Positions 10,708 through 22,509 of a DNA stretch of 22,823 nucleotides are shown one piece after another. A program made the translations under genes and the position numbers. This DNA comes from an uncultured Methanosarcinales archaeon (GTDB lineage: Archaea > Nanobdellota > Nanobdellia > Woesearchaeales > GW2011-AR9), in the NCBI GenBank assembly GCA_964344235.1, contig CAYFMJ010000012.1, positions 1-22,823 of the forward strand. The letters run 5' to 3'. Under the pieces are notes generated by a model that searched no databases, was not told the DNA's origin, and saw only the letters and a list, made by a program, of their open reading frames with translations. How positions within the stretch are numbered: the first letter of the stretch is position 1; the number at the start of each line of letters is the position of its first letter.

Positions 10708-11286
10708 CTATGATGTTTTTATGAAGAATGTCCGTTCATCGAAAACTGATTCCGTTGAATCCTCATTTTCTCCTTCTTTAGCAATAAGAACAACTTTGTA
10801 GAGATACGTTCCTGTTTTATCTGGAGCTGTAATTGTTACCGGAACGACTCTCGTTTCGCCCTGTGTGAAATCTTGAAATTCACTATTCCAAATTATCTTC
10901 GATTCAGCTTCAGTTCCACCAACTGTTGTGAATGACTTTTCTACTTCAGAGACAAATGTGTCAAATCCCTCGTTGGTTTTGACTTCGAATCCAATTTTTA
11001 AACTAAGTTTCCCATCTTTAGTATTTTTAATACCAATAGCTTGCACTGTGTCCTGGCCCGTTTCCAATATAAGCTCGTCAGTTGGGAAGCTTAACTTTTG
11101 ATTTCCACGTCTTAGATCGTCTAGAATCTGCTGTTCAATTTGTTTTTGAACTTGACCAGACGTATCTTCAATGTCTATAAAAGTGTTCCGTACGAATCCT
11201 AATCCTAAACCAAGAACTACAAAGGCAATTACAACAATAACTATTGCTTGAATGGAAAGATTTAATGATCCTCTCTTTGATCTCAT
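10708..11286 (-). CDS. Pilin-like protein with class III signal peptide
   Basis: True start MRSKRG/SLNLSIQAIVIVVIAFVVL at 11286 (SD-like GAGGTG). The ORF-track extension to 11400 runs through non-coding sequence. Confidence 0.75.
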   Translation of the reverse strand: MRSKRGSLNLSIQAIVIVVIAFVVLGLGLGFVRNTFIDIEDTSGQVQKQIEQQILDDLRRGNQKLSFPTDELILETGQDTVQAIGIKNTKDGKLSLKIGFEVKTNEGFDTFVSEVEKSFTTVGGTEAESKIIWNSEFQDFTQGETRVVPVTITAPDKTGTYLYKVVLIAKEGENEDSTESVFDERTFFIKTS

Positions 11287-11487
11287 TGTGTACACCTCTT
11301 TTTTATGAATGATTGTTAATGTTGAAATGTTTATTTTGTTGTATATAAAGCTTTTGTCTTCACGTAGAAAGAAAAAAAGAAAAAGCGGGTCCCATAACAA
11401 AGCATTGCATGGTTGATCCCCGTAGCTCCCTAAGTTTTATCGGTATAATTCTTTTAAACTTATATAAATTTTTTGTCGATGTGTAGA

Positions 11488-11586
11488 GCCGAGGTCGCAT
11501 AACTTGGTTATTGCGGCGAGTTGATGACTCGTAGCCCCCTAAGGCTTGCGGGTTCGAATTTCCTAACGGAAGTCCCGCCCTCGGCG
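11488..11586 (+). tRNA. Class II tRNA with Ser-type body, anticodon GAT, and a 14-nt intron at 59/60
   Basis: Acceptor GCCGAGG/CCTCGGC, G73. Anticodon stem GCGAG/CTCGT, loop TT-GAT-GA (11521..11527). V-arm AGCC/GGCT. T-stem GCGGG/CCCGC. Intron 11559..11572 with BHB (TTCG/CGGA helix, AA/T and AG/T bulges). TATA about 25 nt upstream. Confidence 0.85.
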
Positions 11587-11591
11587 CACAA

Positions 11592-15794: not shown

Positions 15795-15956
15795 GGCGAT
15801 GTGGCTAAGTCTGGTTATAGCGTCACATCTGTGAATCGTAAGGATTGCAGAGGACGAAGCTCATATAGTTGAACGATGAGATCTCAGGATCGATGACTAA
15901 CTCAACGCATAACTGGAGTTACGTGAAGATCGCGTGTTCAAATCACGCCATCGCCA
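15795..15956 (+). tRNA. Elongator tRNA-Met(CAT) with introns at 30/31 and 37/38
   Basis: GGCGATG/CATCGCC-A, D-arm GGTTATAGCG. Removing 15827..15858 and 15866..15920 gives TCACG-CT-CAT-AA-CGTGA. Both introns have relaxed BHB/BHL junctions. Confidence 0.88.
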
Positions 15957-15960
15957 TCTT

Positions 15961-16081
15961 GCCAGCGTGGCACAACCTGGTACTGCGCAAATCGAGGAAA
16001 TCGAGCGTAAGCCTGGAATTAGGAAAGTACCATACAGCTTGTTTCCTTCGGGATATCCCGGTTCAAATCCGGGCGCTGGCG
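15961..16081 (+). tRNA. tRNA-Ser(GGA) with introns at 29/30 and 37/38
   Basis: GCCAGCG/CGCTGGC-G, long V-arm. Removing 15991..16010 and 16019..16035 gives CAAGC-CT-GGA-AA-GCTTG. Starts 4 nt after tRNA-Met. Confidence 0.9.
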
Positions 16082-22393: not shown

Positions 22394-22509
22394 CGGACCC
22401 GGGAGGACTTTCGCAGATGTTTCGAACCCCCGACCCCTTCCTTTCTACGCGATGATAGGAGGGAAGTGTTCTTTCTGGCATTACTGTATCCAGACTAAAC
22501 TACGGGTCC
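22394..22509 (-). tRNA. tRNA-Arg(CCT) with three introns (20a/21, 37/38, 59/60)
   Basis: GGACCCG/CGGGTCC-G. Introns 22473..22487, 22443..22455 and 22408..22420. The spliced product has A20, CTTCC-CT-CCT-AA-GGAAG and GGGGG-TTCGAAT-CCTCC. Confidence 0.92.

Follow-up and report, generated by a model that had tools for sequence, protein, structure and literature searches.

A tRNA gene with a serine tRNA body and an isoleucine anticodon in a DPANN archaeon, apparently one of a conserved family restricted to A35 anticodons

Transfer RNAs whose charging identity disagrees with their anticodon are rare, and they offer natural test cases for mistranslation that is tolerated or exploited. In yeasts of the CUG clade, a tRNA-Ser(CAG) that combines a serine tRNA body with a leucine anticodon delivers serine to a hydrophobic codon, in company with the reassignment or ambiguity of one rare codon. 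Bacterial allo-tRNAs have a serine-type long arm, G73 or U73 and mostly non-serine anticodons, those of isoleucine included (Mukai et al. 2017, PMC5389517). Nematode nev-tRNAs are class II molecules of a single lineage in which the anticodon (Gly CCC or Ile UAU) does not match the charging identity (Hamashima et al. 2012, PMC3333845; 2015, PMC4300185). Serine identity is set by the variable arm rather than by the anticodon, and G73 is both a strong serine determinant in archaea and an anti-determinant for LeuRS (PMC9976931). Isoleucine identity depends strongly on the discriminator and the anticodon, and the E. coli and human cytoplasmic IleRS also use t6A37 as a determinant (PMC9976931).

The stretch analyzed here, referred to below as the window, comprises 22,823 nucleotides of contig CAYFMJ010000012.1 (C12) of assembly GCA_964344235.1, a 1.19-Mb assembly in 37 contigs (39% G+C, 96% complete). 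Protein matches place the genome in DPANN (Woesearchaeota/Nanoarchaeota), and its tRNA genes are rich in introns. The original prediction was of a serine-type tRNA body carrying a GAT anticodon. Read from the sequence and its fold, the gene has the following parts:

11488-11586, plus strand: class II tRNA gene of 99 nt with a 7/5 acceptor/T branch
11488..11558, plus strand: tRNA exon 1, from the 5' strand of the acceptor stem to T-loop positions 54-59, with the D, anticodon and variable arms and the 5' strand of the T stem
11523..11525, plus strand: anticodon GAT (positions 34-36), between T33 and G37, in a 7-nt loop on a 5-bp stem
11533..11547, plus strand: variable arm of 15 nt, with a 4-bp stem AGCC/GGCT, a 6-nt loop and a single unpaired 3' T
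11559..11572, plus strand: T-loop intron of 14 nt at 59/60, a relaxed bulge-helix-loop
11573..11586, plus strand: tRNA exon 2, with T60, the 3' strands of the T and acceptor stems and the discriminator G73

Both halves of that prediction held. G73 and a long variable arm characterize the body, whose acceptor stem (GCCGAGG at 11488-94, CCTCGGC at 11579-85, followed by G73 at 11586) and D arm (GCAT/TTGC, a 3- to 4-bp stem with GG within the loop) nearly match those of canonical tRNA-Ser(UGA) and tRNA-Ser(GCU) from related genomes. The anticodon arm (11516-32) reads GCGAG-TTGATGA-CTCGT, with G37 at 11526, and the loop TT-GAT-GA is a clean 7-nt loop. The T arm is formed by GCGGG/CCCGC, and its loop, TTCGAA-T, is split at the hyphen by the 14 intronic nucleotides. 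CCA is not encoded at the 3' end of the gene. Reading the loop in a shifted frame as UGA (Ser) was rejected, since the anticodon would then fall at 33-35. A C/D-box sRNA reading of TGATGA (Rfam, 8.7 bits) was likewise discarded, there being no D box and the motif being absent from the other copies of the gene.

The archaeal splicing rule was first checked on ordinary introns of this genome, such as that of tRNA-Lys(UUU) with its CTTT/AAAG helix. At 11559-72, a 4-bp helix TTCG/CGGA is accompanied by a 3' bulge AG-T, and the 5' bulge AA-T is fused with the loop. The promoter and the bulge-helix-bulge (BHB) intron had been predicted to be intact. The promoter is intact and so is the intron motif, but the latter is a bulge-helix-loop, a relaxed form of the archaeal splicing rule that falls short of a full BHB. 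Among all 4-bp BHB-like excisions, removal of 11559-72 ranked second and was the only one to yield a cloverleaf; the scan of every such excision found no alternative intron that removes the variable arm or alters the anticodon and leaves a cloverleaf. The minimum-energy fold of the precursor consists of the cloverleaf plus a helix between leader and trailer (z = -3.9 versus shuffles). Because of the T-loop intron, the gene is missed by both ARAGORN, which made no call at default settings, and the Rfam tRNA model, which gave 15.4 bits, under threshold. We conclude that the tRNA gene at 11488-11586 is real and intact, and that it joins a serine tRNA body to an isoleucine anticodon.

The gene fits none of the neighboring standard classes. 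It shares the long arm and G73 with canonical archaeal tRNA-Ser and lacks a serine anticodon (NGA or GCU). Canonical tRNA-Ile(GAU) is of class I with a variable loop of 4 to 5 nt, A73 and A37-A38; this gene is of class II with G73 and G37. Archaeal tRNA-Sec has a 9/4 fold, a long D stem and UCA, in place of the 7/5 branch, 3- to 4-bp D stem and GAT found here.

We then placed the gene within the tRNA set of its genome. Purpose-written scans, which looked for the acceptor together with the T arm or for the 5' half, located about 38 tRNA genes, an incomplete census; ARAGORN (default, with introns) and Rfam together found only about 15 of the genome's tRNAs. The genes that bear on the present one are as follows:

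C4:46177-46276: paralogue with GAT, intact, loop CTGATGA
C2:170288-170419, minus strand: paralogue with GAT, intact, loop CTGATAC
C2:7914-8020, minus strand: paralogue with GAT, intact, loop TTGATAG
C7:12253-12357, plus strand: paralogue with GAT, intact, loop TTGATAG
C6:25403-25516: serine-type paralogue with TAA
C3, about 51954-52088, minus strand: degenerate GAT copy, the seventh in the genome, loop TTGATAA, with intact variable and T arms, intron, trailer GCTGTAAAC
C2:79193-79320, minus strand: canonical class I tRNA-Ile(GAU), A73, loop CTGATAA after intron removal
C2:64460-64590: canonical tRNA-Ser(UGA)
window 15961-16081, plus strand: canonical tRNA-Ser(GGA), introns at 29/30 (20 nt, helix GCGC/GCGT) and 37/38 (17 nt)
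C2:102738-102926: canonical tRNA-Ser(GCU)
near C6:11900-12035: canonical tRNA-Leu(UAA)

The variable arms of the paralogues differ in sequence and still pair. The 5' strand of the C3 copy's acceptor cannot pair with its 3' counterpart, and this copy is probably decaying or recombined. Of the three introns of tRNA-Ile(GAU), those at 30/31 and 37/38 were derived from the sequence. A check for separate Ser(GCT) and Ile(GAT) genes had been proposed with the original prediction, and both are present, so the gene at 11488-11586 is an extra one. More generally, the serine-type GAT and TAA genes are additions to a set in which the canonical Ile, Leu and Ser tRNAs are retained. The genome encodes a single, standard SerRS (TIGR00414, 476 bits), an IleRS, the splicing endonuclease and RNase P RNA.

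Several other tRNA genes were interrupted as well. The 29/30 intron of tRNA-Ser(GGA) ends in GAGCGTAA, the same end and helix as in the 29/30 intron of tRNA-Ser(GCU) on C2. Four nucleotides upstream of tRNA-Ser(GGA), at window 15795-15956 on the plus strand, ends a class I tRNA with the acceptor GGCGATG/CATCGCC, A73 and long interruptions. Rfam gave it 46.8 bits with a 96-nt insertion and ARAGORN called it His(GTG); parsing by hand put CAT within GCTCATA, a 7-nt micro-exon flanked by an intron on either side, and it is probably a tRNA-Met. At window 22394-22509, on the minus strand, the scan found a tRNA-Arg(CCT)-like gene with apparent introns in the D, anticodon and T loops. The GAT gene at C7:12253-12357 converges, across a gap of 25 nt, on a class I tRNA gene with multiple introns on the minus strand (C7:12383-12520) that has G73 and an encoded CCA and probably carries GTT (Asn) on a short exon.

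The reading of isoleucine codons was examined in ThrRS, using an alignment of 120 sequences made up of the protein of this genome and 119 homologues. Columns at the genome's ATT and ATC codons were occupied by I (57-68%), V, L and M, with S outside the seven commonest residues. TTA columns corresponded to L and TTY columns to F, and serine codons to S, A and T. Whatever code is assumed for the homologues, the pattern is the same, because codons for V, L and M are unaffected by how ATT is read. By this comparison ATT and ATC still encode isoleucine and the code of this genome is unchanged, which agrees with the earlier view that ATT is not reassigned. AUY codons make up 5.9% of all codons, and ATT (4.1%) is the commonest among the codons tabulated.

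To follow the gene beyond this genome, we derived a covariance model from six such genes, using their 5' parts, so that the search model was itself drawn from members of the family. It gave high-scoring matches in two more genera of the archaeon's own taxonomic family and in many families across the order. Ordinary-looking canonical tRNAs for Ser, Leu, Ile and Met were matched as well, with scores of at most 56 bits; the second tier of matches was not accepted into the family, as 20 of 20 proved to be canonical tRNAs. The top match of each genome parsed gave 26 genes from about 21 genomes, which are related to one another. Their anticodons were GAT in 12, GAA in 5, TAA in 3, CAA in 2 and CAG, TAG, GAG and TAT in one each. 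Thus, A35 was present in 26 of 26, a result not forced by the way in which the genes were selected, and only Ile, Leu and Phe anticodons occurred. A search of relatives for the same gene had been suggested at the outset, and GAT indeed recurs on a serine-type body in several other genomes.

The anticodon loop had an identical register across the 26 genes. All of them had U33 and a purine at position 37 (G in 15, A in 11), position 38 was variable (A, C or G), and most members with GAT combined G37 with C38. The D and anticodon stems were paired in 208 of 208 cells, 64 of them double-sided compensatory, with seven of eight pairs covarying, in an alignment fitted to the model and drawn from related genomes. 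The 25 members with mapped ends were 98-168 nt long and therefore contain at least one intron each; the exact position of the intron was checked in the copies of this genome. The gene at 11488-11586 has the full set of family features, namely, a 7/5 class II fold, G73, A35 (as GAT), a GTGT/GCAC leader-trailer helix with an AGA bulge and a T-loop intron at 59/60. By these comparisons it belongs to a conserved archaeal family of class II tRNAs that have a 7/5 branch and G73 and are derived from tRNA-Ser.

The genomic positions of some members are conserved. The TAA gene on C6 of this genome and a GAT gene of another genome (G002) have both flanking genes in common, and their stems differ by compensatory pairs. 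In four different families of the order, a member with GAA or GAT immediately precedes a gene of the TctA family on the same strand. Since orthologous loci carry different Ile, Leu and Phe anticodons, the anticodon switches within this set at conserved loci. The TctA-family (PF01970) membrane protein loci are L017 (G032), L139 (G105), L124 (G138) and L129 (G160), with no terminator between the two genes. This arrangement suggests that tRNA and TctA-family gene may be cotranscribed at an old, conserved locus. The TctA homologue of the present genome (C2:67137-68261) has no such tRNA upstream. Within this genome, no partner gene was common to the serine-type loci; across genomes, the only one was the TctA-family neighbor in the four families.

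The flanks of the gene at 11488-11586 contain the following elements:

11451..11468, plus strand: two adjoining TATA-like boxes, CTTTTAAAC and TTATATAAA, a putative archaeal promoter read from sequence
11481..11484, plus strand: GTGT, leader strand of a 4-bp leader-trailer helix, paired with 11586-11589 in the minimum-energy fold
11485..11487, plus strand: AGA, a 3-nt bulge between the leader helix and the acceptor stem
11586..11589, plus strand: trailer strand, G73 and CAC, followed by an A-rich stretch without an oligo-T tract

T11480 and A11590 could add a fifth pair to the helix. A TATA-like box is found at similar spacing upstream of the paralogues and of the relatives' genes, about 6 nt nearer to +1 than in canonical tRNA genes. 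Divergent from this promoter, at window 10708-11400 on the minus strand, lies an open reading frame of 230 aa with no Pfam match at E 0.001.

The pairing of leader positions -7 to -4 with G73 and the next three trailer bases, together with an A-rich 3-nt bulge at -3 to -1, is a hallmark of the family. On average, 3.64 of the four positions paired in 25 family genes; sliding either strand gave 0.8-2.4, and a control set of 12 canonical class II genes averaged 1.9. Covariation is evident within the helix (GTGT/GCAC, GGGC/GCCC, CAGT/GCTG, GGGT/GCCC, AGGC/GCCT, GGAT/GTCC, GGAC/GTCT and CGGC/GTCG), and the bulge is AAA, AGA, AAT or ACA in 23 of the 25. G73 is present in all 25, paired with T or C at -4; because it is invariant while its partner varies, G73 itself appears to be under selection. 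Family trailers are A-rich, and a run of four or more T residues within 25 nt past position 73 occurs in only 5 of the 25, as opposed to the T-rich trailers of the canonical class II controls. With the TATA box so close, the transcript might start too late to include the leader strand; the covariation argues that the leader is included.

The leader bulge and helix would have the geometry of the 5' half of a BHB motif. A full BHB at the gene ends was considered and rejected: an outer helix and a 3-nt bulge on the 3' side had no fixed offset, and the 5' half alone was regular. We therefore make no claim of double cutting or circularization, as the 3' side has neither a regular 3-nt bulge nor an outer helix. 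A lack of RNase P as the cause of the leader structure was also dismissed, given the RNase P RNA in the genome.

The reading that we tentatively prefer, with confidence short of even, is that the gene supplies a weak, supply-limited serine decoder of AUY codons, gated by the T-loop intron and the leader-trailer structure. Its own TATA promoter would yield a transcript with a short leader and a trailer without an immediate terminator. Leader and trailer would pair across G73, placing the 3-nt bulge next to +1. The T-loop intron would be removed by the splicing endonuclease and a ligase, after which the ends would be trimmed and CCA added. The single standard SerRS would then be expected to charge the product with serine, since it has both archaeal determinants of serine identity, G73 and the long arm, and LeuRS is blocked by G73. 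At the ribosome, the tRNA would read AUY in weak competition with tRNA-Ile, weak because position 37 is G and not t6A. Its supply would be limited or gated by the two additional steps of maturation, so that serine at isoleucine positions would be rare or bound to certain conditions. Such a decoder comes at a cost: with AUY at 5.9% of codons and ATT the commonest, five intact GAU genes bearing serine would be very harmful unless weakly active. The variability of positions 37 and 38 is unusual for efficient decoders and also counts against serine decoding.

A broader form of the same idea would extend it to the whole order, in which these tRNAs would be charged with serine and decode the commonest Ile, Leu and Phe codons, gated by the T-loop intron and by a leader-trailer bulge-helix that sequesters the discriminator. 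A cell could thereby switch on statistical serine substitution, for example, when hydrophobic amino acids derived from a host run short. We regard this wider proposal as unlikely.

The foremost rival to serine decoding, itself somewhat unlikely, is a tRNA-like RNA that is made, perhaps serylated, and not used by the ribosome. It could act as a serine donor for another pathway, as a sensor or decoy at abundant hydrophobic codons, or as an RNA without a free 3' end, its leader-trailer stem kept or its ends circularized after endonuclease cuts. The leader-trailer helix and the missing terminator, both peculiar to this family, are consistent with such a role, as are the variable positions 37 and 38 and the toxicity expected of serine at so large a share of codons; multicopy expansion would suit an RNA whose dose outweighs decoding accuracy. 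However, U33, the purine at 37, the 7-nt loop, the covarying 5-bp anticodon stem and the invariant A35 are what ribosomal decoding needs, and it is from these constraints that we argue for use of the anticodon. G73 is invariant although A73 could pair with T at -4, which points to aminoacylation. Moreover, the serine-type loci have no conserved partner gene, and the absence of a regular 3-nt bulge on the 3' side leaves double cutting and circularization poorly founded.

The history of the copy at 11488-11586 bears on a second alternative. Its promoter, leader, acceptor and trailer match those of the C2:170288 copy (97% across the 32 nt at the start of the query), and its T arm and intron match those of the C4 copy with a score of 29 of 31, the intron itself being identical. 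The gene is a mosaic of these two copies and hence a product of recent duplication and gene conversion, in a family that has grown to seven copies in this genome. Its neighbors are housekeeping genes, and in none of 29 related genomes did such a tRNA stand beside the prepilin peptidase gene that abuts this copy. The mosaic would fit a selfish or neutral expansion, in which a serine tRNA lineage with changed anticodons spreads by duplication and gene conversion, is poorly expressed or matured and has no host function. The copy number would fit as well, with seven in this genome and none to five in most relatives, and so would the C3 copy without an intact 5' acceptor strand and the lack of synteny of the C12 copy in the 29 related genomes. 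Nevertheless, structure, G73, A35 and the leader-trailer helix have been kept across many families with compensatory changes, and orthologous loci have been retained between genera and between families. Drift would also have produced anticodons beyond Ile, Leu and Phe, and none was seen among the 26 genes. We therefore consider an expansion without function improbable.

Quite improbable, too, is an additional true isoleucine tRNA, charged with isoleucine by IleRS through its GAU anticodon despite the long arm. The anticodon is a strong IleRS determinant (PMC9976931), and several GAU copies would suit the high demand for AUY decoding. Charging by IleRS is argued against by G73 in place of the A73 determinant and by G37 at the t6A37 site. 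Sister genes at orthologous loci carry Leu and Phe anticodons on the same body, which one anticodon-reading synthetase cannot explain, and the canonical tRNA-Ile(GAU) is retained. Finally, the caveat attached to the original prediction, that an assembly error or a recent mutation had produced GAT by the one substitution that separates it from GCT, is refuted; even with decay of tRNA-Ser(GCU) included, this alternative has a nearly negligible probability, given the separate Ser(GCU) gene, GAT in five further genes (four of them intact) with different stems on other contigs, its recurrence in several other genomes and the intactness of all stems, intron motif and promoter.

How these tRNAs relate to described systems can be stated feature by feature. 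The gene shares with allo-tRNAs the serine-type arm and discriminator and the non-serine anticodon. Allo-tRNAs, however, are bacterial, have a 12-bp 8/4 or 9/3 branch and carry anticodons for 35 codons (PMC5389517), whereas this gene is archaeal with a 7/5 branch and the family is limited to A35 (Ile, Leu and Phe). Introns or a leader-trailer helix have not been described for allo-tRNAs; this gene has both. The nev-tRNAs are nematode class II tRNAs, charged with leucine and directed to rare codons. In contrast, the present family is archaeal and directed to the commonest codons, and its G73 is an anti-determinant for archaeal LeuRS. Compared to the yeast tRNA-Ser(CAG), there is no reassignment here, the genes are multicopy and several abundant codons are concerned. 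Since it lacks defining structural or taxonomic features of each of these systems, the gene stands apart from all three.

The precursor also has partial parallels. The T-loop intron with its relaxed bulge-helix motif resembles the noncanonical and multiple BHB introns of archaeal tRNAs, and the leader-trailer helix with its 3-nt bulge resembles one half of the BHB processing stems of pre-rRNA and permuted tRNAs (PMC4090602, PMC3978253, PMC7714728). The known motifs serve ordinary tRNAs and rRNAs, whereas here the helix takes in the discriminator and is confined to a single class of tRNA. A covarying helix of that kind was not found in the literature searched, nor was any published description of this tRNA family in archaea, where it apparently has not been described. 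The features brought out by the present analysis are the A35 rule, the covarying leader-trailer helix and the anticodon switches at orthologous loci. The tRNA sets of DPANN archaea are incompletely annotated because standard tRNA finders miss genes such as these.

The family may place serine at hydrophobic codons or may serve a non-decoding purpose. If charged and used, these tRNAs would provide regulated, proteome-wide serine substitution in organisms with minimal genomes; if unused, they would be tRNA-shaped RNAs of a new class, serving some other role. The family would be the archaeal counterpart of the allo-tRNAs, the nev-tRNAs and the yeast tRNA-Ser(CAG), distinguished from them by its conservation in a DPANN order, its multiple copies, its restriction to A35, its match to the most frequent codons and a precursor architecture of its own.
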